A stretch of DNA of 64,000 bases from Rhizodiscina lignyota (GCA_010015805.1 ML978134.1:558001-622000); one strand, 5' to 3'; positions 32,734-62,729 are shown, numbered from the stretch's first letter. Made by a program: numbers and translations. Notes: generated by a model not told the origin, from the sequence alone.

Positions 32734-33134
32734 GTTGTACTTTGCAAGTTACATGTCATATACTGCTCTGGGTTGATAGGAAACGTCCAACTTGGAAGAA
32801 GCTACTAGAGGCGCCGAAGCGCGCGTTAACGGAAAAATTTCGGCTTCCTCTGATCCCCTCAGGATGGCAAGGCGGCGGCAAATTCCGACGTGGTTCGAGC
32901 CTTGATGAAGCTCCCAGGGTATTTTATATTCCCAATACCAACTCAAGCTTTCGTCTAACACTTTCACGATATAGCGACGCTCGTGAAGGGCTGAGAATCG
33001 AAAAGAGATTAGTCAGCATTTCCGCGACACGCTTATAAAGAATGTCCACATCATAGACGCCACGATTTCGAATCAAAAGGCCAAGTTCGAGCAAACTCAG
33101 TTCACATTCGTCACTCTCCTCTCTCACGCTCAAG

Positions 33135-34325
33135 ATGTCCGATCCAGGAGCCGTTGCCGTCGTTTGCGTCGGCATGGCCGGCTCAGGCAAAACCACATTC
33201 ATGCAGCGTATTAACTCGTACCTCCACGCAAAGCACGACCCGCCGTACGTGATCAACCTCGACCCAGCAGTGCGCAATGTGCCGTTCGAGGCGAACATCG
33301 ACATTCGCGACAGCGTCAACTACAAGGAGGTTATGAAGCAGTACAATCTCGGTCCGAACGGTGGCATCCTCACGTCTCTGAATCTCTTTGCGACAAAGAT
33401 TGACCAAATACTTGCGCTGCTCGAGAAGCGAACAGCAGCGCCGCCGCCAGCAAAGCCAGGAGAGCCTCAGGCGAAGCCGGTGCGGAATATCATTGTCGAC
33501 ACACCGGGGCAGATTGAGGTGTTTGTGTGGAGCGCAAGTGGCGATATCTTGCTTGGATCGCTAGCTTCCTCGTTTCCCACGGTCATTGCGTACATCATCG
33601 ACACCCCGCGCACAGCATCGACCAGCACGTTCATGAGCAACATGCTCTATGCGTGCAGCATATTGTATAAGACAAAGTTGCCCATGATTTTGGTGTGCAA
33701 CAAGACCGATGTCAAAGATGCGGAGTTCGTGGAGGAGTGGATGACGGATTTCGAAGCCTTTCAGGCGGCGCTGCGAGAAGAGGAGGAGAACCCAGAAGGT
33801 GGAGACGGATTAGGCGGAGGAGGCAGTGGGTACATGGGCAGTCTGCTGAACAGCATGAGCCTGGTATTGGAAGAGTTCTACAGCCACCTGAGTGTTGTGG
33901 GTGTCAGTTCGATGACAGGTGAAGGCGTGGATGATTTCTTCGCGGCGGTGAGAGAGAAGGCTGCAGAGTTTGAGCGGGACTACAAACCTGAATTAGAGCG
34001 CAGACGGCAGCAGAGGGAAGAGGAAAAGAAGGGCAAGCAGGAGAAGGATTTGAACAGGCTGTTGAAGGACATGAATGTGTCTACTGCTTCGAGTTCGAAG
34101 CAGACAAAACCGCCGAAAGCGGAGCCGGAGACGATCAGCGACATGGAGGACGAAGACGATGATGACGATGATGGGGACCTTGTCGACCCGGATGAGGAAG
34201 ATGATGATGAGGAGAAAGATGGTCTTACGCAGAGATACCAGCAAGCGCTCAAGGACAGCGAGAGTAATCCACATGGCGATGACTTCAGCTTTGCCAGATA
34301 TATGCACAAGGCGAACATTGGCTGA
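33135..34325 (+). CDS. GPN1: GPN-loop GTPase 1 (Npa3/XAB1)
   Basis: [10 protein letters not shown]-loop, NLDPAV, LGPNGGI (GPN loop), [13 protein letters not shown] and an acidic C-terminal tail. Intronless. Confidence 0.95.
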
Positions 34326-35644
34326 GCAGTTGCCAAATATGCGAACGACGTTTCACTGAGGCAGCAGCGCTCTGTCCGCGTGACTAGATTCATGAAAGGA
34401 ATGCACCGGAGAAGGCCGTTTGCGAATCGGCGGTCTATATGGAGTACGGAGCTTCCCTGTGTCAACTACCACAGACACGTCACGAAGCCCAAATGACGAC
34501 CTGGAGATATTCACTGTTTTGGTCCGCAAGCGCCCGCAGTGAGGAACTTGTCTTGCTACGAAGCACTCCTCGCGCCTCTTGGCCGCTTAATTGCTGGTAC
34601 TACCAGGATCATGTAGCATATAATGGCGCAGATTAAATCACACTACAACATCATGCGGATTATTCTGTTGATCCCTGGTTCTGTTGAGGTATGTTGTGAC
34701 ATCACATGAACCTTATGAAACCGGTTGTTGTCCTACATTTCTTATAAAGACTCGAGCCGACGCTTTGGCTGCCGTGGCATATATATAATTCTCTCTCGTA
34801 TTGCTGAATGCTGCGTGAGTTCGCACCTACAGTACCTACTATGTCCTTAGAAACGCCCAACGAAGGCCATGTTAAGCAACTGATACATTCACTCTCAGCT
34901 TGCATCGAAGCAATAGCCCACGCTGTCCCGAGCCATATTCGCATCCCCTCGCGTCTCCGTTCGGCCAATCCTTTTCGACCGGACACGACCCCGATGGGCC
35001 AAGGGCATAGTGCCAACGAGCCCGATACGTATGTATGGAGCGCGATTAAGTACCACAATGATGGTAGGCGAACATGACTACGGCGTCCTACACCAGCCAT
35101 AAACACTGATCCTTCTGATCACTACAGAGAGACAAAAAATATCCCGAAAGACTGGGATCCCGCGCCTGCCGCTGAAGTTCTCACCGGATCTCGCACGTGG
35201 AGCGGAGCAATGGGCACAACACCTCCTCAAAACAAACAGCTTCAAGCACTCGAACGCGGATGGTGAGTACGGCGAGAACCTGTGGATGGGTAGTGGCAGG
35301 CAGCTTCGCGGTCCAGCGGATATTCAGAAGATGATTGCCGATGCACATAGTAGCTGGATTGAGGAGGGTCATCGACCTGGCGAGAACACACATTATTCAC
35401 AGGTACGTATCTAACGCTGGTACATCCGTGTCACAAACATGGAGGAGCTGACCGTGTTTCTGGAAGATGATCTGGCCGTACACGACAGAGCTTGGTATCG
35501 CTCATGCGTACCGCGACGGTACCGCAGTGGTTGTTGCGAGATATTCGCCACCTGGAAACATATTGGTCGTTTGTCCGCTTAAGGGGTATCACATTTCTTC
35601 GATGTAATGAGCGAACGAGGGATTGAATGTTCCGATTAACGAGT

Positions 35645-36560
35645 CTAATGGAGCGGGTGGTCGGTGAGATCGATACCCTTTGATTCAAGGAACTCGCGAC
35701 GCTCCATGAACCGGTGATTGAGTGTCCACTGAGTGACTGCATTCAAGTCTCTACACCGATACCTTCCATGCTCGCCAAAGTTGAGGTAGTCCTCTGTCGG
35801 AGAGAGGTTTACATCAGCATTACACATCATGCCCTGTCGGATCCAGTCCACACAGTGTAGGCTGTGATTGTAACCTTCAGACCCGTAGGCGAAAAACTGA
35901 TGGTTTGGGTGGTTGAGGCGCTCACGAACAACCTCCTGATATGGGTAAGCATCTTGGTTGGACTAAGTCGTTTCGCATAGGCTTACTAGACAGTGTAGCT
36001 GGTGGAATACTTCTACTTGATATACGCTGCTGCCAGGATACTTTGGAGGCGCTGCGGCAGAAGGAGGCAATCCTCTCTCAGCCGCCCATTCATCTGGGAC
36101 TATAACAACTCCGCCTCCCTCTGGAAATGGTGTTAGTCAAATAGAGGAACCACTTTTTTTACAAGCAGCTTACTAGGATGCATGCTGACACGCCAATAAA
36201 TATCATTCTCATCAGATTCCGGTACGATATCTGGGTTGGACAAGAAGGTAGTGGGAGTATTGAATTTATTTAGTTCATCATCTGAAACATTTATGAGTGT
36301 TTGATAGAACTGGTATCGAAGGGGACTTACACGAATCATTGATCAGCGATAAAGCCTGGCAAGGTGTCCAAAGGGTGAACCAAAGTATTGTAGCTATCAC
36401 GGCTAGATTGAGACACTGAACTATGAGAACCCATGTACAAGTATTTAAGCCGTTGTGATGTTGAAGTGATCGAAGCACAGGTAAATCAGAAGCGCAATTT
36501 GGATCATGCTGTTCACTCTCCTTCTGAGTGAGAGGACGATAGCTAGTCAATACTCTCCAT
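35645..36560 (-). CDS. UstYa-like / DUF3328 oxidase #1 (start codon out of frame)
   Basis: Four exons with introns 36330-36282, 36173-36121 and 35986-35936. N-terminal TM helix, then GGGVV..GLPPS...YQVEVFHQLHCL|EVVR...NHSLHCVDWIRQGMMCNAD...CRDLNAVTQW. Two HxxHC motifs. Confidence 0.85.
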
Positions 36561-36842
36561 GATGAAGAATTGGGGTCAGACAGGAAAGAGATTCTAGCTT
36601 GAGCCTACAAAGTTCTTATCTTATAAACTTTGAAACAGACCTAACGCTGATTTAACCTCACTCATCTGACTCATAACCTAGTTCACGCTTAAGTGGGACG
36701 CATCCCTGAGTAAGTTAGTCGATTTTACAAATACATACAAGGTTATTGGCAGCGCAAATCTCCATACCCACTGCATATATTAATGTAAAACCTCTGCAGC
36801 GGCTTATTCAAGCCTATTGCATCAACCATACATATAACTATT

Positions 36843-37871
36843 CTATGTTTCTAGTAAACTCCCATTATAATTGGTTACTTGGTGCTGAACTAATTGTTCT
36901 TTAACAGCATTCCAATCTCGACAATTGTGGCCTGACCCTATCCCATCGAATACTATTCTCGACGATCCATCCATGCGCATACTTTCATGGCCAAACGTGA
37001 GAGTTGTGTCACCTGAGCGAGCGTATCAGTACGGCTCCAAAGTAAATCATACGTTTTGAACTCTGCCGCGTGTCTTACCAGCACAAAGTATTCCTTGTCG
37101 GACTGTTGATGTTTGTTAGCCACGGAAGACATAATGAGCCAGATTAGTTTAGCTATCTTACTAATATCAAGACAATGAAAGACATGTTTTGGGGTACTGT
37201 ATTTTGATGTGGTACCTTTGTCATGATCAATTATCACCCTCCTGAGGGTAGCCTAAATATGCGTTATCAAACAGAAGGTTATTAAAGATATAGGGCAAGA
37301 ATTACCAAGCAATGAAGCTGATGGATAAGTGACGCTTGATATATTTCAGATCTTTCAGGGTCGTTGATTTCAGACTCGTTGGAACGGTCCCATAGCACAC
37401 TTTTTGGTAAGTTGTGCTGCCGAGGGTATGGCACACGGACGTAGCCAGCGCCAACTGAAATCAATTCAGCATCAAGTATATCAGAGCATAGGGATTGTTT
37501 TATACGTGGCAGCATATCATCCCAAGCTTTATCTCCGAGCTCACTAGTATCCCAATACTCTTCCGCCTTGACGAACTCGGTGTATATGATTGGAACTGTT
37601 GAATCTCAGCGATATACATGTTTGTAAGGTAGGAGATCTCACCAGCAGGAAAGAAATTTATGGGTGAGCCCAAGGACCTCTCCATCCCAATATGAGAAAC
37701 CTTAAATATCCACAAAACTACCAAGATTAACAGCGCTAAGAACACGAAACCAATTCTCATTGCTAAAGCCTTAGAAAAGGTCCACCGACTACTGATCCAT
37801 ATGGTGGAGTGGGATTCGTCTATCAGTTCTTCCTCATCTTGGGCTATCGCCTTGTACGTGTTTGAACCCAT
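36843..37871 (-). CDS. UstYa-like / DUF3328 oxidase #2
   Basis: Six exons with introns 37642-37596, 37505-37455, 37305-37253, 37161-37103 and 37078-37013. Reads MGSNTYKAI..., TM helix, AWDDMLP.GAGYV...IHQLHCL...KHVFHCLDIIRQGILCAGDTTL...DGIGSGHNCRDWNAV. Confidence 0.9.
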
Positions 37872-38751
37872 CGTACTATGTAGACGAGAGAAATATTGTC
37901 GATGATATCTGTCTAGCAAGAAGGAAGACTTCTTCGGAACTCCTCATAAAGAACAATTGCTCTCAATTACTAATGTGAAAACCATATCTTTCCATAAACG
38001 GCAAAATGTAAAGGACGCACTAAGCCTGCTGCTTACTGTAAATTAGCCTCCTGAGGGGTTTCAGATAAGCCTCTCGTGTAATCTTGTGTTCAAATATCAC
38101 ATAGATCGTACACTTAGCAGCGTGGCGCTTCGACGCATCCAAACGCGTTTGGAGCGTGTCGGTGGGTCGGATCTAACAGCGTCGGCTTGAAAACGAACCA
38201 AAGGCGGCGAGAGATTAGTCCATATTGAATAGATTTGCCACTGTTGCGCTTTTTAACAAATTAGAAGCTCTGATATATTAAGTACTGATAGCCTAGACGC
38301 ATCTAGATATCGCTTAGACGTAATCGAAGAGACCGGTCAGCTCCAACGCACATGGATCTGACGCAATAGTTCAATGCTTAGAGTGCGGAGCGCGGCCGCG
38401 AGCCACGCTAGACTACACTTCTTCTTGGAATATGCCTCTGTGTCAAAAAATCCTAGATCCACAAATGCTCTCAAATTCCTAAAGTGTTCTCGTATTCGTC
38501 TTATCTCACTTCGTATTCTTGTCCTCTCTAGGCGCTTCGTCTTTCCCCGGATTTTCGATGCATTTAAAGCTTCGAGCCGTGCTCAAATTCAGATGGCCAG
38601 ATTGCCTTCAATTAATGCATTTTGAATAGCTTTTAACGTTTTCAAATCTGCATTTCATAACAGCTCAAATCTGAGCATAAAAGAAGACCAATCTCTCTAC
38701 CTTTCCACCTCATCATTTCTCCTGAAGCACCAATTCTACAGCTCATTCATA

Positions 38752-38916
38752 ATGCGTTTCACTCTATTCCTGCCTACAGCATTGCTGTACTTCGCTACTA
38801 CAACCGTTGCGGCACCGGTACAACAAGAGAGAGCTGTGGTTCCTAGCCTCGATGCCCGAGCTCGCTGCTTTGTAGGCATTTGCGGAGGAAGTAGCAATTT
38901 TTCGGACCGCAAGTAA
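38752..38916 (+). CDS. Small secreted prepropeptide, candidate RiPP precursor (54 aa)
   Basis: MRFTLFLPTALLYFATTTVA-APVQQERAVVPSLDAR-ARCFVGICGGSSNFSDRK*. Signal-peptide-like N-terminus ending VA|AP, an LxxR pro-site, CATAATG start context and a TATA-like CATAAAA at about 38676. Too short for the ORF track. Confidence 0.75.
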   Translation: MRFTLFLPTALLYFATTTVAAPVQQERAVVPSLDARARCFVGICGGSSNFSDRK

Positions 38917-39001
38917 ACAATCCTAGGTCAGTATAGTATAATATTCACTCTGTATATCTGCTTGATCTACTATACGATAAGTACACCGCAGCTAAATACT
39001 A

Positions 39002-39064
39002 CGCAGCAGACGAACCAGACTCCGCAGCAGACGAAACAGACTTCACAGCAGACGTACCAGTTCT
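39002..39064 (+). repeat. Three 21-bp imperfect tandem repeats
   Basis: cgcagcagacgaaccagactc / cgcagcagacgaaacagactt / cacagcagacgtaccagttct. Confidence 0.85.
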
Positions 39065-39495
39065 TTAGGCATCGGATTGAACGGATGAATCTACACTGCA
39101 GAACACTGAACATACTTTATATAGTTTAAAGTGATCAAATGCCACAAATTCTGCACTATGACTGTATTAAGATTGGCTACTAGCTCCCACCATATATGTC
39201 GCACTGTAATTGATAGTACCGTAAATTCTCCTTCCTCTGACTACGTTTATTCTGAAGGTCTGGCCGTACGAGTATAGAACTGAAGTGAAGGCAAATTCAC
39301 AGTCTTAACTTTAGTAAGTACGTACACTTGAGGTTCTACATTATTCCTTTGCTACGCGCCCTTCAGATATGCAAAAAGCTCGTATTTGTACGCTGGAGTA
39401 ATAATGCTAAGCTGGGTCTCAAATGCTATCGCTTCCCTTCCCCAGTATTTACTAGACTCAACGCATCATTTCACTCTTTTTACAATTTTTCCCTC

Positions 39496-40158
39496 ATGGC
39501 ACCCCATCATTATAGCGAGCTGCCAGTAACAAGCACGTTTGATGGTCATGAAGAAGATGAGAAAACCCCCTGGGTGTCTCGGAAGCCTCCATCTTTTTAT
39601 CTACCAGCTGTTTCGGCCATATTAGCCATTGCTTTCGCCATCGCCATCACCCTCCTATTTTTAACAGGTCTGCCACTCAACAAATGTACCATTGAAAATG
39701 GCATGCCATCTGGAACCTCTCATACTAGAAACGAACCGCGATATCATAACTGTGGCTCGACACCTGACGAAGCCCGTGCTCGCGGGTGCCACTTCGAGGT
39801 CTTGATGGGTATCTGGCAACTCCCAGAATGCTTCGACGCCGAACTGCAAGAGGAATATCTTCACTATCGAAATTGGAAATGGTTCGAGGACGAGGCTATG
39901 ACTCGGGAGGTGCCAATGGAGGTATTGTCAAGAGGAGACCATACAATAGCCTGGGCGACGAATGAATTTCATCTGATACACTGTATGTATGTCTGGATAA
40001 AGCAGCATAAGGTGTATAAGTATGGAGGAAGCCTGGATCACGACTCTCAGAGCACTCACCACACAAGACATTGCGCGCATTATGCGTTGGAAGGGCCGGA
40101 ACCTATGACGCCTGTAAGAAATGGCTACCCAAATTGCACAAGAGTACATAGATCTTGA
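39496..40158 (+). CDS. Divergent DUF3328-like twin-HxxHC membrane-anchored oxidase #3
   Basis: Intronless. MAPHHYSEL..., TM helix, NCGSTPDEARARGCHFE...W..PECFD, FHLIHCMYVW (HxxHC 1) and HHTRHCAH (HxxHC 2). Confidence 0.75.
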   Translation: MAPHHYSELPVTSTFDGHEEDEKTPWVSRKPPSFYLPAVSAILAIAFAIAITLLFLTGLPLNKCTIENGMPSGTSHTRNEPRYHNCGSTPDEARARGCHFEVLMGIWQLPECFDAELQEEYLHYRNWKWFEDEAMTREVPMEVLSRGDHTIAWATNEFHLIHCMYVWIKQHKVYKYGGSLDHDSQSTHHTRHCAHYALEGPEPMTPVRNGYPNCTRVHRS

Positions 40159-40744
40159 AAATTGAAATATACTGTTACCTATTACACAGGAATTTGCTCA
40201 CCATGATGGCTATCCTCGTTTTTCAGCTTGTGAATGTGGGTCATAACCAACAGAAACCTCCCGTGACGAGAACGCGCCAATGCTTTCTAATGCAACAAAG
40301 CTAGTAAGGAGCTATAGGCATAGGTACTTTTGAATTAAAGACTACCCTTGTCCTTAATAGCTTTTGCGAACAGTCTCTGTCTACCATGCAATACTAACAT
40401 TCGCCTTGAGTGTTACGGAGGAGCGTCACTTTGAACAGCCTCGAAACCACCAGCCACAGCAGGCTACGAGAATACGTCTTCACTCGTAATAAATCACGTG
40501 GAATGGATCACTCAAAATCCCGGGCGAAGTAGATTTTGGTTGCCTGATGCGATTTGACGAGGTTGAAAACATGCGGTGAAAAACTCAGGCCTAGAATTGT
40601 GATTGATAGGCGCCACGTCGTCAAAGCTCAGCCTTCTGCACTGCCTTCATTTTCTCTGCCGCTCTGCAAGGCTGAACTCTACAATATTATTTCAACCGAA
40701 CGATCGCTCGCAGTGTGATACTCTCCTCGAATACGGTCCGAGTC

Positions 40745-54897: not shown

Positions 54898-57800
54898 ATG
54901 AAGTTCGGACACAATCTACCGCGTAATCAGGTACCCGAATGGGCAGCATCGTATATCAACTACAAGGGGCTCAAAAAATTGATCAAGGCCGCAGCGGAGT
55001 CTGTGAGAGAAGGAGAAGACCCGGATCTCGCAGGTATAGCAACCTCCAGCACGATGCCGAGCTGACACGCGAGCAATATCTGCTCTGGGCGTGTTGGACA
55101 TCTTCTCACTTCTGTCCAGAATTCTTCTTCACCCTCGACCGAAACCTTGAAGACGTCGATGGATTCTACAACAAGAAGTATGGTGATGCTTCTCGCAGAC
55201 TGCGGCTGCTCTACGATCGGTATGGCAAGGCCTTACCAGCGGATGGTATGGATCGGGACGAGGTGGAGGATCTCATGGGAGCTCTGCTTGAGCTTCGTGG
55301 ACAGCTGAGGAAGCTACAATGGTATGGGGAGGTGAACAGGAGGGGCTTCATCAAGATTACGAAGAAGCTGGACAAGAGAATTCCAGTTCAATCGAGCCAA
55401 CGGCAATACTTGGCGACCAAGGTGGACCCAAAGCCATTTGCTACCAATTTCAGATTGGCCCAGGACATGAGAGCAGTCAATGACTGGATGTCTGCTCTTG
55501 GAGAGGTCAAGACCTTTGACGATGTAGGATCGTCACGTTCTTCGGCTTCAATGAGGCATGTATCATCACGGGCGATCCTAAATTTACCCCCTGGCCTTTT
55601 AGATACTGTCGACCAGGCCATTCGGAATGACGATGCGGCTATAATCTCAGAAGTGCTACTTGAAGCAAATACGGACGAAGATTCGACCACTCCAGCTTTC
55701 CAGAAGTTGCTCCTGAATCTGCTACAGCGAGCTATATCTTGCAAGAGCAAGCTCTGCATTGAAACTCTTCTCAAACGAATTGTAAGCTTGGACGAGGAGG
55801 ATGATCTGAATAAGCGCAACTGCATCCACCGTCTTGTCATCTCAATTGGACGCACAAAGACTGCGGAACAACAGAGTCAGGAACCTTCACCAAGCAAGCC
55901 ATTCGACCCGCCAAACTTTATCACACCAGCAGAATCTCCAATGATGCTGCCACCTCCGTGGACGAGGCCGGAAGAAGAGGCAACCAATGTGCTTAGCAAA
56001 AAAGATGACTCTGTGAAGCTGTTGACGTTCCTCTTGGACAAACTTCAACCTTCACAGCGATCTGCACTCCAAGCTCGGGACTCGTACGGCCGGATACCCT
56101 TACATTATGCTGCCCATTACGGGTTTGTGTCCATTTGCGAAGAAGTTGTTAAGCATATGCAAGACTGGGGCCAATTTGATGTCAGCCACGGAATCGATTC
56201 TGCAGTATGGCAAGATAATGACGGCTTTGCACCACTGCATCTGAGTGTTGTCGGTGGCCACTATCTCACCACCAAAGCATTGCTCGAAGCTGAAAAGTGG
56301 CAAGGGCATGAACAGGCGAACCATGCCTTCAGGAGAAGTGAGGCAAAATCCGGCGCAGTCCTGGCAATAGCCACCAAATCGAACTACTATCCCATCGTTC
56401 AACTCCTCGTAGACGCTGGCGCTGACATAAATTACCAAGATGAACAAGGTGAGACGGCGCTGCATGTTGCTGCTCGCTTTGGACATGATAAATGCGCCGA
56501 AATTTTGATCCACGGCTCAGAAGAACAGAAGACAAACCTTGAGATTACCGAAAAGACCTTTGCATGGGCACCTTTGTTCATTGCTTGCGTAGACGGACAC
56601 CTTGGCGTGGTCAACTTGCTCATCGAAGCTGGCGCGGAATTGGGCAAGACGGATTCTTCTGGCTGGACACCAAGAGAACATGCTGCGCTCCGTGGCCACA
56701 TGGACATTGCCCGTCGCCTCACAGAAGTTCTCCCACCTCCACTACTCACAGCGCCAGATTCGTCTTCTGGCGTGTCAGGCTCGCCTCCCAACCCCCATTC
56801 TCTGGGGGAGCGGCGGTCTAACGTAAATATAAAGGAGAGCGGGAAAATGTCCCAGCCAGTCAAGACATTCGGACATCGCTATTTAAATAAGGAGAGTATG
56901 ATACTTCTCTCCCTCGGTACAATGGACATGCGAAAGAACGTGGATCCTGTCAAATTGGACGACATTCCTCTTGCGGACGCTCACGCCACTCAGCTGGATA
57001 CGGCGTTGTCTGTCGTCGTTTCTGCGAAAGGCGCCAATGGCGAATCAACCGTAATTGATCTCCCAGTGCAAGAAAACATCAGCACGGATCCTATCACGTT
57101 TACAGCAGAAGACCCTACCAAGGTGAAATTGCTCTTCGACATTGTTCCAACATATGCTGGCTCCAACGAACGGAGGGTCGGTCGTGGCGTTGCTTTACTT
57201 TCCAGCATCAAGCCGAGCATTGGTTCCAAGCGTATCACCCTCCAAAGCGATATCAGTGTCCCGATTGTTGCTGCCAATACCTTGGAGGTCATTGGATCGG
57301 TCAATTTCAACTTTCTCATCATCTCGCCTTTTTCTCACCCGAACATGTCAATTACTGAAGAGCGCACATACTGGAAGAGTATGGCATCGACAATGTTGAT
57401 TGGACACCGTGGCACTGGCAAGAACTTTCCGCCTGGCTCGTCCAAGTCCTTGCAACTGGGCGAAAACACCATCCAGTCGTTTATTACCGCAGCGAACCTG
57501 GGTGCATCCTACGTCGAGTTTGACGTACAGCTGACAAAAGACCTTGTCCCGGTCATCTACCACGACTTTCTTGTCAGCGAGACAGGAATTGATGCGCCTG
57601 TGCACACTTTGACTCTGGAGCAATTCCTTCATATTGGCGAGGGACAGACTCCACGTCCATCTAGACCTGGTTCCCCGATGACTTATCCAGAATCTGCAAC
57701 CTCCAAAGATTTGGCCAGTGGAAAGGACAGGGCTCGAAAGCCACGCTCCTACTCAATGACCTCGAACAAGGACGACCGCACTTCGGAGCTGGCAGAACGA

Positions 57801-58566
57801 ATGAAGCATACACGTGACTTCAAGAAGAAGGGTTTCAAGGGTAACGATGGCAACTTCATCCAGTCCCCATTCACAACCCTTGAGGAAATGTTCAAGAAGC
57901 TGCCAGAGTCGATCGGCTTCAACATCGAAATGAGTAAGCAGCCGATGTACTATGCTCAAGTGTACAAGGACTGACCTAGGTTTTATAGAGTATCCAATGC
58001 TTTTCGAGTCTGAAGATGAAGAGATGGATACTTATGCAGTCGAACTCAACTCGTTCGTCGATACAGTGCTGACGAAAGTCTACGACCTCGGCCGCAAGAG
58101 GAACATCATCTTCTCGTCATTCAACCCGGACATCTGTCTTCTTCTGTCCTTTAAGCAACCTTCTATCCCAATCCTGTTCCTTACAGATTCAGGCTGCTCC
58201 CCTATCGGTGACATCAGGGCCAGCAGCCTCCAGGAAGCAATTAGGTTTGCGAGCAAGTGGAATCTTCTTGGCATTGTGTCCGCCGCGGAACCACTAGTGA
58301 CATGTCCGAGACTCGTCAAGGTCGTGAAGGAGTCCGGCTTGGTGTGCGTCAGTTACGGCACGCTGAATAACGAGCCATACAATGTGAACGTGCAGGTCAA
58401 GGAGGGCATTGATGCTGTTATTGTGGACAGCGTGCTCAAGATCCGCAAAGGTCTCACGGAAGGAGATTCAAAGACTGCGCCAGGGCAAGCACAGACGCAA
58501 ATGAACGGAGCCACCAATGGCACTGTGAATGGGGCAAATGGGATACCTATTCCGACGAAGTCATGA
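54898..58566 (+). CDS. GDE1: Glycerophosphocholine phosphodiesterase (SPX-ankyrin-GDPD)
   Basis: MKFGHNLPRNQVPEWAASYINYKGLKKLIK (SPX), ankyrin repeats, then IGHRG, ENTIQSF, VEFDVQLTKD and FSSFNPDIC. Introns near 55.03-55.12 kb and 57.93-57.99 kb. Confidence 0.95.
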
Positions 58567-60037
58567 TCAAAACTGTCACGACATTCTCACCTCTGGCGCC
58601 TGGCTGGGGTTTCAGGCGTTTGTGGGCGGAAAAGTGCTTTTTAGGCGAATGAGCCTAAATAAAGCTCAAATAGACTTATCAAGAGCTGCTCGAGGAAGAC
58701 GATCTGGTAACAGATCTGCATTTCCCACCTAGCAGACTAGACAAAAACAATGTGACGACTGTACGATCATTCCCTGCTCATCGCAAATCTACATAATGTC
58801 CACTTGAAGAAGTCGTCAACCTGAAGGCTTTCAAACCCTCTCTCCGCTCCTGCAAGACAAAGGAACCCTCGATTCTCATTCGGCTCATCGTCGCCCCTCG
58901 CACCATGGATTTTAGCTTCAGACACTGTACGTGAAGGTTGGGATGGCGTCCTGCGAAAGCGGTCGGCTTGTAAATATTGTTGAAGATCTGGAATCAAAAA
59001 CTATTCATCGTGAAGATGCGAACGGGGCGATCGTGTGTCTTAGAGACGGTCGCAGTGCGTGTGGTAGCGACAGATATCGGGATGTGCCAGAAAGCAGAAT
59101 TTCTCAGACGGAGGAGGATCCCGAAGGACGCGATAGTAAGTCCCAAATGTAAACATAGTTGCCGAGATGATCATCCAGCAGCACCCTAGTCTCGCCCAGA
59201 GGAGCAACTGGACAAGTTGCTTGTGCCTGGCTCGCAATTCTTGCAACTCCTTGTCTTTGAGGGATTCAATGGAGTCCATGAGGCTGTGCGTTTGGAAGGC
59301 TGCCACAAGGGAGAAGGCTAGAACAGTGGATGGATGTAGGTGAGTAATATTTATTGTGGAAAAGAGTCCACGTGTGGTCGATTCAGATGTAGATTCGAAA
59401 GTCAAAGATTTAATGTCAGAGGACGTCTCGTAGATGGGGTTTTGTCTCATGCACGTCAAGACCTCCGGTCAGTTCTGCGGCACAGCACTCATCGGGCCCT
59501 ACACTGCCACAGGACAACAGTTATACAAGCCACCATTTCTAGTATGTCAACCGATCTGATATGGTCACTATATCCATCCTTAGGGCTCAAGATAATGCTT
59601 ATCGTAGTCACGTGGCCCATTCCATATCTAGTATGGTATTAAGATCAGAGAATGAGATAGTTGTCCTGCATTGATGCCAAGCGTAGTAGAACACGGAGGA
59701 CTATCTGCCGATTCAATTTGCAAGCAAATCAACTGTTTGCCAAATACGGTTTTTAGTCTTCTCATATATTGTGGTACGTAAGATACATAGCCCTTTGCTA
59801 TGTTGCGGCTCGCTCGTCTCCGCGCTCTGCCTCGGATCTGCAAAGATCATCATGCGGAGATCACCATCAGAGTAGCTGAGCGACATCAACCAGCTATGGG
59901 TGGATATACTACTCCGACAATAGAGTTGGGCTTTTTCTAAATAACCATTTTATGCTTGAACTCTTTCTCGCACAAACCGTTTCATCTGTATTTTCATTGA
60001 ACTCTCCGATTCTAGCACATTGATGTGAGACTCCGTC

Positions 60038-62729
60038 ATGGCGCCTCCCACTGAGCAGTCAATACCTGTCACCTATATCCGCGGCGGCACCTCCAACGCC
60101 CCATTCTTCTACGATCATGATTTACCTCCAGCAGGTCCTAAACGTGACCGCTTCTTGCAGCGGATCATGGGTTCTCCAGATCCGATGCAAATAGATGGCC
60201 TAGGTGGTACAAATATCGTGACATCCAAGATTGCCATTATCAGCAAATCAGACCGGCCGGGAGTGGATGTTGAGTACAACTTTGTGCAAGTTGGCATTGT
60301 CGACGACGTTGTCGCATACAACGCCAATTGCGGCAATATTTCATCTGGCGTGGGGCCCTTTGCGATCGACGAGGGCCTGCTCAAGGAGCAAAGAGAGGGT
60401 GTCAGAATTGACGAGAGCCTAGAAACGAAAGAGGTTAGAATTTGGAACACGAATACGCAGAAGCTGCTTGTTGAGCACGTTCCAATCAATCCTAAAACTG
60501 GTAAGGCGCTGGAGGCTGGAGACTTTGAGATTTCAGGGTGCCCTGGGACTGGAGCCCCAATTCTCTTGGACTATCGCAATGTTCGAGGACTCTACTCATT
60601 CTGCAAACATCACATGCTGATCCGAACAGGTCATTGGATCGCAGCTTGGTGGCTCTGCCCTCCCGACAGGAAATGCCACGGATCGCACAACCGTCGACGG
60701 GCTGGAAGTCGAGTACACCGTCTGCGATGTGGCTAATATCTGCGTCTTTGCTCGTGCTCAAGACTTGCAGATTCACGGTAATGAGGCATCGGCAGCACTC
60801 GATGAGAACAAGAAGCTCCTCGCCCGTATGAAGGAGCTCCGTGGCAAAGCTGCACAGAAGATTGGCATGTGCAAGGACTGGCGAGCGGTGGACGAGGAAT
60901 CGCCCATGGTTCCGTTTGTTGGACTAATCTCGCCTGCAACGAGGGAAGATTGCCATATACAGTCACGATTATTCCTGGATAACAAGTGCCATACTGCGAT
61001 GGCTGGCACAGGCGCAACTTGCACGGCTGCCGCCAGCAAGATACGAGGAAGCATCGTCAATCAAATTGCGAGACCGCAGTCCAAGAGTGAGACTGAGTTC
61101 AGGATCCAGCATCCATCTGGTTACATACCGGTTGTGGTCAAGGTGAAGCCCGGCACAGAAGACCAACCAATACCAGACTTCGATACATTGTCCTTTATTC
61201 GAACTTCGCGTCGATTCTGGGACGGCCACCTGTATATCCCAGATGACGTCAAGTATTGCTTTGAAGAAACGAATGGCGCCTCGAGCAATAGTGCTACTAA
61301 TGGCCATGTCAACGGCGAGGTCAATGGGCATACCAATGGCACGATTGCGAACGGGCATGCGCCAGAAGATACCATTCCATTGACCACCAAGACTCTTGCA
61401 GAGTTCGTTGCGAACCTCAAGTACTCCGATATCTCCGAGGATGCTCTTTCACATCTTCGCCTGCTCCTCCTTGACTATATCGGCGTCGCCTCCGCCGGTG
61501 CCACCCTCGCCGAATCTACCAAACCCTTCCTCCGCGCCGTCGGACGCCTCGACACCGCCGGAGGGACAGCGACCGTTTTCGCCAACGATCAGAAGTGGGA
61601 CCCACGATACGCAGCCCTCCTCAACGCTGCGCAGTCTCATAGTCTCGACTGCGACGACACGCATATTGCCGCGGTCCTACATCCAGGCGCGCCGATCTTC
61701 TCTACAGCCTTGGCCGAAGCCGAGACGTCCCCTCTCAAGCCCTCCGTCGAGGAGTTTTGGGTGGCAGTGGCATCAGGCTACGAAGTTGCCGTCCGCCTCG
61801 GCCTCGCTATCGGCTTCGGTGGTCATGAAAAGGGGTTCCATACCACAGCCACCGCCGGGCTTTATGGCGCTATATGCGCTCTTTGCGTTCTCCGCAAGCA
61901 CGATGTTCAAAAGGTGGAGGATGCGTTTGGATTGGCAGTCAGCATGTGTGGAGGCACTCAGCAGTTCATGCAGAACGGATCGTGGAACAAGCGACTCCAT
62001 CCCGGGTTTGCGGCGCAGAGCGCCTTCACAGCAGTCGCGATGGCGGAGGAGGGTGTGATTGGAGCGGCGGAACCATTGGAGGGGAGATATGGACTTCTCA
62101 CCTGCTTTGGCGATGGCAAGGGTCATTGGACTATGAAGCCTTTGAAACAGCATTGGGAGCTGCTAGGGACGGCAGTAAAACCTTGGCCGGCGTGCCGCTT
62201 TGCGCACGGTCAGATCGAGCTCGCCGGGGAGATGGGTGAGAAGAGCCAAGGGAAGCGAGTGAAGAGTCTGACAGTCAAAATGGGACCAAGTCCATACCAA
62301 ATCATAGGAGAGCCTGTAGAACACAAACTTCGGCCGAAGAACATTGTCGAGGCGCAGTTCAGCAGCTACTACCAAACAGCCGTTGCTTGGCTGCGAGGCT
62401 CAAAGCTGGGCTGGAAGGTCTACGACTTGGTTGGCGACTCTGACGTCTTGGAATTTATAACGAAAATTACCATTGACGTCGACAAGTCGTATGACTTTCT
62501 GGAGACGGCTATTGATGTTGAGTATGAGGATGGCTCGAAGGAGAATCGCTTCCTAAAGGCGCCGAAGGGAGAGCAGGTCAACCCCGTGACATGGGAAGGG
62601 GAAAAGGAGAAGTTCATGGGTTTCGCTGAAGCCGTTTACGGAGAAAATAGGTGTAAGGAGATATGCGATGTAGTAGGCAAGTTGGAGCAGCATGGGATCA
62701 GCGAGCTCATGTCGCTGGTAAGAAAGTGA
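60038..62729 (+). CDS. PrpF (DUF453/aconitate isomerase-like) and MmgE/PrpD family fusion protein
   Basis: RGGTS, GSPDPMQIDGLGG..TSK and NCGNISSGVGPFA; intron 60581-60629 restores LPTGN; NG-rich linker; then LLDYIG, HSLDCDDTH..HPG, KRLHPG and KPWPACRFAH. Confidence 0.85.

Follow-up and report, generated by a model that had tools for sequence, protein, structure and literature searches.

A compact, fungal-RiPP-like DUF3328 locus in Rhizodiscina lignyota with a candidate single-core precursor

The dikaritins, among them ustiloxin, phomopsin, asperipin-2a and victorin, are peptides of fungi that ribosomes synthesise and that are modified after translation (RiPPs). In the accounts given in PMC7329392 and PMC12048977, one or more genes for UstYa/DUF3328 proteins with twin HxxHC motifs adjoin the gene for a signal-peptide-bearing precursor, and several diverged DUF3328 paralogues occur per cluster. 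Their precursors are processed by Kex2 and carry many core copies delimited by Lys–Arg (KR), the core usually containing a tyrosine. The locus described here comes from Rhizodiscina lignyota, a wood-dwelling Dothideomycete of the order Aulographales, and lies within a stretch of 64,000 nucleotides (GCA_010015805.1 ML978134.1:558001-622000), referred to below as the window. It holds two canonical UstYa/DUF3328 genes (A and B), a third double-HxxHC gene (C) and, between B and C, an unannotated open reading frame (ORF) of 54 codons, here called the small ORF. The locus is a new fungal-RiPP-like DUF3328 cluster, of a kind that is recognised but loosely defined. The reading that we favour, at a probability of roughly 40%, is that of a compact cluster in which three DUF3328-superfamily oxidase genes accompany a single-core precursor encoded by the small ORF. 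The features concerned are as follows.

35645-40158, genes A and B on the minus strand, small ORF and gene C on the plus strand: the three-oxidase locus
35645..36674, minus strand: gene A, canonical UstYa/DUF3328 (Pfam PF11807), exon model, stop codon at 35645-35647
36843..37871, minus strand: gene B, intact canonical UstYa/DUF3328, 250 aa, ATG at 37871, stop codon at 36843-36845
38752..38916, plus strand: the small ORF, unannotated, 54 codons, candidate precursor
39496..40158, plus strand: gene C, an uninterrupted ORF for a single-exon, 220-aa, type-II-like membrane protein

As in dikaritin clusters, a DUF3328 gene stands within a few genes of the candidate precursor; the small ORF is 880 nt from gene B, which is divergent from it, and 580 nt from gene C, which lies downstream. 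Kex2-delimited core repeats are found neither in the small ORF, which has one copy of its putative core, nor in any other ORF of the window, and because this repeat feature is missing the locus is not a classical dikaritin cluster. Accessory genes were sought with Pfam in two scans. The first took in 130 ORFs with a length of 110 aa or more from the entire window; the second took in four long unassigned ORFs and, from 26.0-35.7 kb and 44.0-50.7 kb, all ORFs of 62-109 aa but one, a gene A exon (100 of 101). Among these 130 + 104 ORFs there is no non-ribosomal peptide synthetase (NRPS), polyketide synthase (PKS), tyrosinase, methyltransferase or peptidase domain, which bears out the initial annotation in its remark that no tyrosinase, methyltransferase or peptidase gene was visible nearby, and no backbone gene occurs among them within 35 kb upstream or 24 kb downstream. 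The lack of a tyrosinase or methyltransferase sets the locus apart from the dikaritins, as does the position of one of its three enzymes outside PF11807. The original definition by Ding wants a tyrosinase or methyltransferase, while in later definitions, as related in PMC12048977, DUF3328 alone is class-defining.

Closer in this respect are the UstY clusters of lichen-forming Parmeliaceae, clans R1 and R2, which PMC12048977 describes as antiSMASH-type RiPP calls based on homologues of UstY that bear two HxxHC motifs. No repeat precursor was found in them, for which its authors suggest two explanations, a core peptide present only once or a precursor that is unlinked. Repeat-free UstY clusters and the single-core idea have thus already been published for lichen fungi in that source. 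The lichen clusters carry accessory genes (a tyrosinase and an O-methyltransferase in R1), whereas the present locus has none but offers a concrete candidate ORF. The cyclochlorotine cluster likewise contains three DUF3328 paralogues, CctO, CctP2 and CctR, and the last of these provides the mechanistic template, being characterised in PMC12435403 as a hydroxylase, a membrane-anchored, lumen-facing, disulfide-linked homodimer that holds two copper ions in its HxxHC(x)nHxxHC motif and depends on O2 and electrons. In the cyclochlorotine cluster the substrate is an NRPS cyclic peptide, while the window lacks an NRPS, and the Cct proteins are likened to genes A, B and C by description only. The double HxxHC of the CctR-based superfamily is present in all three genes, with adjacent helices modelled for gene C.

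Genes A and B are, judged by their sequences, old and diverged paralogues, since they share 28% identity over 170 aa (E 6e-15), the C-terminal CRDW segment included; divergence of this order between paralogues is typical of non-redundant pairs. Gene B is assembled from exons 37871-37643, 37595-37506, 37454-37306, 37252-37162, 37102-37079 and 37012-36843, separated by five GT-AG introns of 47, 51, 53, 59 and 66 nt, and encodes a membrane helix followed by HQLHC and HVFHC (HxxHC positions 151/179). The exons of gene A are 36604-36331, 36281-36174, 36120-35987 and 35935-35645, with introns of 49, 53 and 51 nt; the membrane helix is encoded by exon 1, and the motifs are HQLHC and HSLHC (positions 167/196). 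A membership threshold of the curated 25 bits was used for PF11807. By this measure the last two exon ORFs of gene A are recognised on their own (E 4.7e-10, 40.1 bits, and E 3.4e-7, 30.8 bits), while a single exon of gene B reaches only 17.1 bits alone; the public protein P0151, which contains B residues 1-204, scores 153.4 bits in two UstYa stretches.

P0151, a 381-aa NCBI protein of Rhizodiscina lignyota to which the last exon of gene A is 100% identical, also presents an alternative view of the locus. Its first 204 residues agree with the first five splice junctions of gene B, but it then continues, through an intron of ~700 nt, with gene A from exon 2. Were this model right, B and A would form one tandem double-DUF3328 protein and the locus would encode two enzymes, not three. 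Besides the database model itself, the lack of an in-frame start codon in gene A speaks for such a fusion, and a covalent pseudo-dimer is conceivable given that DUF3328 proteins work as dimers, as reported for CctR in PMC12435403. Yet the fusion drops 46 C-terminal residues of B that are in frame to the stop codon and align with the conserved C-terminus of A, CRDW segment included, it bypasses the open, helix-encoding exon 1 of gene A with its 91 codons, and its long intron compares poorly with the eight others in A and B, which measure 47-66 nt. For these reasons P0151 is probably a fusion artefact, and we regard a single tandem protein as unlikely. The annotation also appears to lack gene C and the small ORF; for gene C this is suggested by the presence of P0151, a protein of the same genome, in the very database where a word-index search did not find gene C. 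The expectation that annotation pipelines could easily miss such a locus is therefore borne out by the two UstYa genes fused in P0151 and by the two ORFs apparently uncalled.

Gene C has the architecture of a DUF3328 protein but lies outside PF11807. It encodes HLIHC at residues 159-163 and HTRHC at 189-193 behind a membrane helix at residues 33-56, and the spacing from one HxxHC to the next is 28-30 residues in A, B and C alike. Against PF11807 it reaches only 14.2 bits (E 0.039), below the cut-off. The initial annotation had spoken of three DUF3328-type oxidases and had proposed a check against this profile; the designation holds for A and B, which pass, and for gene C it holds as far as the membrane helix and the double HxxHC go, not for membership of the family. 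The word-index search gave gene C no match at E<=1e-3 among proteins of 121-385 aa, while an exhaustive search returned 1682 representatives, clustered at 50% identity, at E<=1e-3, of which 836 were at E<=1e-10 and 3 at E<=1e-30. The closest relative, P0001, is a fragment of 117 aa with 81% identity, and the next is 38% identical. Throughout an alignment of 60 family members, C86, G87, A93, C98, W107, C112, H159, H162, C163, H192 and C193 are invariant. The family (P0002-P0150) consists of membrane-anchored fungal proteins of ~220 aa with the pattern CG..A..C..W..C followed by HxxHC...HxxHC, and has no Pfam model.

Several comparisons suggest a remote likeness of this family to UstYa. Only 2 of the 60 members touch UstYa in Pfam at E<=0.01, and weakly (best E 8e-4), and an hhalign comparison of the family with P0151 aligned both HxxHC motifs at the same spacing, with a probability of 28% and E 6e-4, in the motif region only. 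An atlas search with gene C listed unnamed Ascomycota clusters first (0.95-0.96), with a UstYa cluster at rank 18 (score 0.85). The AlphaFold model of gene C (pLDDT 85, and at least 90 for 144 of the 220 residues) has the helix at 33-56 and places one motif on helix 156-176 and the other on the next helix, 187-199, an arrangement that matches the description of CctR given in PMC12435403. No solved structure proved similar to the model in the PDB, where the best Foldseek E was 0.67 and the best VIA-align Z was 3.4 among 48,161 chains, and PDB sequence searches with gene C gave nothing meaningful. A scan of metagenomes for synteny yielded one contig of 1430 nt on which the gene C homologue is a single ORF and which holds no neighbour genes. 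Taken by sequence and model, gene C would come from a large, uncharacterised sister family that is remotely related to DUF3328.

The three oxidase genes fit into 4.5 kb of sequence with a base composition of its own, A and B ~0.2 kb apart and B and C separated by a gap of 1.6 kb (1624 nt). The GC content of 35600-40300 is 0.440 against 0.529 and 0.524 on the flanks (a 1-kb profile was also made), so the locus is visibly AT-richer than its surroundings, as first noted, and the TpA/ApT ratio is 0.86 inside it against 0.62-0.64 in the flanks. No Rfam match occurs in 35500-40400. All features are positioned where the initial annotation had placed them. The three genes are far beyond chance and the small ORF marginally so.

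How such a cluster would work can be sketched by analogy with CctR. In each of A, B and C a single 19-residue window is hydrophobic (mean Kyte-Doolittle 2.15-2.86), and the proteins are predicted to have one membrane helix, preceded by a short N-terminal tail and followed by a Cys-rich domain with HxxHC(x)nHxxHC. The membranes that anchor the proteins may be those of Golgi, endosome or vacuole, the catalytic domain would face the lumen, and each enzyme would be a dimer that binds two copper ions through four histidines and uses O2 and electrons to oxidise peptide C-H bonds, with cross-linking, hydroxylation, halogenation or desaturation as the possible outcomes. A lumenal DUF3328 enzyme needs a substrate of the secretory pathway, as set out in PMC12435403, and with three enzymes of this kind and no backbone gene nearby the substrate should be one that travels this pathway, for which the small ORF is the sole candidate encoded in the locus. 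Its 54-aa product would enter the endoplasmic reticulum by its predicted signal peptide, a Kex2-like protease might cut it behind LDAR, and its C-terminal 16-18 residues, the C-x4-C/Phe region, would be modified by the three enzymes on the way out.

The precursor role of the small ORF is plausible from its position, its signal-peptide-like start and the promoter-like motifs before it. It begins with a hydrophobic MRF... start and has small residues at the -3 and -1 positions of a predicted cleavage point that follows residue 21, as judged by inspection under a crude rule; the 33 residues after the predicted 21-residue signal contain LDAR (LxxR) at 33-36, a C-x4-C pair and two Phe. It forms a local GC peak of 0.519, following 0.356 (GC skew -0.40) in 38600-38759. 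Upstream, a pyrimidine-rich tract extends to ~38724 and an A stands at -3 before the ATG; the motifs there are consensus-like, and a promoter role for them is suggested by sequence. The 21-nt tandem repeat listed below begins 82 nt past the stop codon of the small ORF and reads as Arg-rich heptads in one frame; it is probably 3' untranslated or intergenic. Splicing of the small ORF into this repeat was considered and is unsupported, as the only donor is a weak GTAAAC that overlaps the stop codon. Between gene B and the small ORF lies a short dispersed repeat, at which two other contigs of the DNA run branch (38117-38146 and 38211-38243), sharing only the 30-nt ends; it may be the remnant of a miniature transposon and probably has no functional role.

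38676..38751, plus strand: promoter/leader-like stretch, with a TATA-like CATAAAAG at 38676-38683 and CCAAT at 38688-38692
38117..38243, no strand assigned: short dispersed repeat (word depth 332-432, compared with 156 in the adjoining sequence)
38998..39060, no strand assigned: three tandem copies of a 21-nt unit (85% matches; Tandem Repeats Finder score 91)

Two further described systems resemble the small ORF in single respects. The precursor of the fungal RiPP acalitide, AcaA, with its partner AcaB, is short (81 aa) and free of repeats, with a single core and disulfide-forming cysteines (PMC10840396), but acalitide depends on the peptidase-cyclase AcaB and general disulfide isomerases and involves no DUF3328 protein, and the comparison with the small ORF is by description only. 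The K2PP (Kex2-processed pro-domain) small secreted proteins combine a signal peptide with a short disordered pro-region ending in LxxR, according to PMC8528282, and the LDAR at 33-36 recalls this ending. The K2PP effectors are folded proteins and not peptides of 16-18 residues, and the same source states that Asp at P3 of the Kex2-type LxxR site is unfavourable.

Several results weigh against the small ORF as precursor and against a RiPP cluster of three DUF3328 enzymes. When the 1624-nt gap between B and C was shuffled 2000 times (first order), 73% of the shuffled sequences contained an ATG-initiated ORF of at least 54 aa, so that chance ORFs of this length are to be expected there. No homologue was found by word search among 5.8 billion clusters, and the atlas search gave at best 0.75, a score no better than chance. 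The part that follows the signal lacks Tyr, KR and RR sites and repeats, a single core without KR-delimited repeats having been recognised from the start, and among the ORFs of at least 40 aa in all frames of the window none has three or more dibasic-delimited fragments sharing a 4-mer. The LDAR site fits the expanded LxxR motif but carries the Asp at P3. A log-odds test of codon usage, with 18 Pfam-supported ORFs of the window as training set, proved powerless: where the null averages -0.06 (sd 0.11), genes A, B and C score between -0.14 and +0.05, and the small ORF scores -0.04, which 36% of null ORFs equal or exceed. A complex prediction of two copies of the gene A lumenal domain with the 33-residue post-signal peptide scored 0.02 against a mark of 0.34 and counts neither way. 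To these points come the score of gene C under the PF11807 cut-off, the missing start of gene A treated below and, in the Umemura survey, the figure of 31.8% of 9399 DUF3328 counts near a repeat precursor, which leaves ~68% elsewhere and makes unlinked substrates common (PMC7329392).

It is accordingly a serious possibility, if one we would put below even odds, that the oxidases are functional but have a substrate that is encoded elsewhere or is non-ribosomal, whether a precursor from an unlinked gene, a peptide made by an NRPS or some other metabolite, the small ORF being a chance ORF or coding for an unrelated secreted peptide. That most DUF3328 genes do not lie beside a repeat precursor fits this explanation, as do NRPS products such as cyclochlorotine, which DUF3328 enzymes also tailor in the account of PMC12435403, and the lichen UstY clusters, for which PMC12048977 likewise describes no detectable precursor. 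Against it, the window has no NRPS, PKS or other backbone gene over the distances given above, and a start as signal-like as that of the small ORF is uncommon by chance, an ORF of the same length with a crude signal-peptide-like start appearing in 5.6% of the 2000 shuffles under a rule devised after the ORF had been seen. The small ORF also sits in the one large gap of the cluster and behind promoter-like sequence. The Umemura survey reports that DUF3328 genes peak beside precursor genes and that 22% of 7878 repeat precursors have DUF3328 genes nearby (PMC7329392). The initial annotation had called the locus a minimal RiPP locus with a tiny secreted precursor. Of this, three clustered membrane proteins, two of them true UstYa proteins, stand, and a 54-codon ORF with a signal-like start and promoter-like motifs is present, but gene C falls short of the family threshold, and the precursor role, with no homologue and no Tyr after the signal, is held here as tentatively as the favoured reading itself.

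The locus could also be a decaying remnant that has lost the start of gene A, has drifted towards AT and makes no product. The exon-1 ORF of gene A contains no in-frame ATG; an ATG close by, at 36559, is shifted out of frame by one base and runs into a stop after five codons. An assembly error does not account for the missing start, since a separately assembled contig has the identical start region at a word depth of ~156, although the DNA run behind this contig is probably the source of the window itself. The GC content of 0.44 against 0.53 in the flanks and the raised TpA/ApT ratio fit decay, as do the dispersed repeat inserted at 38117-38243 and the listing of the nearest relative's gene C copy as a 117-aa piece only. 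Genes B and C, however, are fully open, with all invariant family residues present, and in gene A the 91 codons of exon 1 and the later exons are open too, with splice sites and motifs intact. A 5' mini-exon could provide the start, the most credible of 113 one-intron rescues enumerated being ATG 36674 with a 64-nt GTGAGG..AAG intron at 36661-36598. Repeat-induced point mutation (RIP) is rejected as the source of the AT-richness, the (CpA+TpG)/(ApC+GpT) ratio across the AT-rich locus being 1.22, which is far from the RIP range. On this balance decay is distinctly improbable. The questions of decay and of a fused B–A protein are separate from that of the substrate, and the weights given to them partly overlap with those for the precursor and for an unlinked substrate.

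The neighbouring genes are of other kinds.

33057-34322: GPN-loop GTPase gene
35103-35607: CAP/PR-1-like gene (PF00188, E 6.7e-8), convergent to gene A and ending 38 nt from its stop codon
40676-44078: HET/NACHT-like (NPHP3_N)/ankyrin gene of the NOD-like receptor (NLR) type, directly downstream of gene C

The CAP/PR-1-like family is one of secreted proteins, and we know of no link between it and DUF3328. The ankyrin part of the NLR-type gene is a tandem array of 102/207-nt units (8.6 or 4.3 copies, 74-80% matches), such arrays being typical of fast-evolving fungal NLRs. Further away, 54927-58563 holds a gene with one intron and SPX, ankyrin, GDE1 C2 and GDPD domains, a Gde1-type glycerophosphodiesterase. 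The long ORF at 60029-62726 comprises the C-terminal half of PrpF followed by the N- and C-domains of MmgE/PrpD, with the N-terminal half of PrpF in the preceding ORF, and looks like a PrpF–PrpD fusion gene.

What makes the locus of interest is its concrete single-core candidate and its link to a large unnamed double-HxxHC family. It was demonstrated only recently that DUF3328 enzymes are binuclear copper oxidases capable of demanding C-H chemistry on peptides, and to our knowledge most of the thousands of fungal DUF3328 copies have no known substrate. We found no experimentally proven non-repeat DUF3328 precursor in the open-access literature. We think it unlikely that the 54-aa ORF is in full a genuine single-core, repeat-free and Tyr-free precursor whose C-x4-C/Phe tail is tailored by three copper enzymes of the DUF3328 superfamily, the gene C family among them, but if this were true it would be the first DUF3328 RiPP without a Kex2 repeat precursor and would give the sister family of gene C its first functional context. 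Should the substrate be something other than the product of the small ORF, the locus would be an ordinary orphan 'fungal-RiPP-like' call. It illustrates how annotation can hide such clusters. It is also about the smallest test bed for this chemistry, with four genes and one defined candidate peptide that can be tracked by mass spectrometry, and the position of gene C beside canonical UstYa genes hints that the unnamed double-HxxHC family shares the same enzymology.

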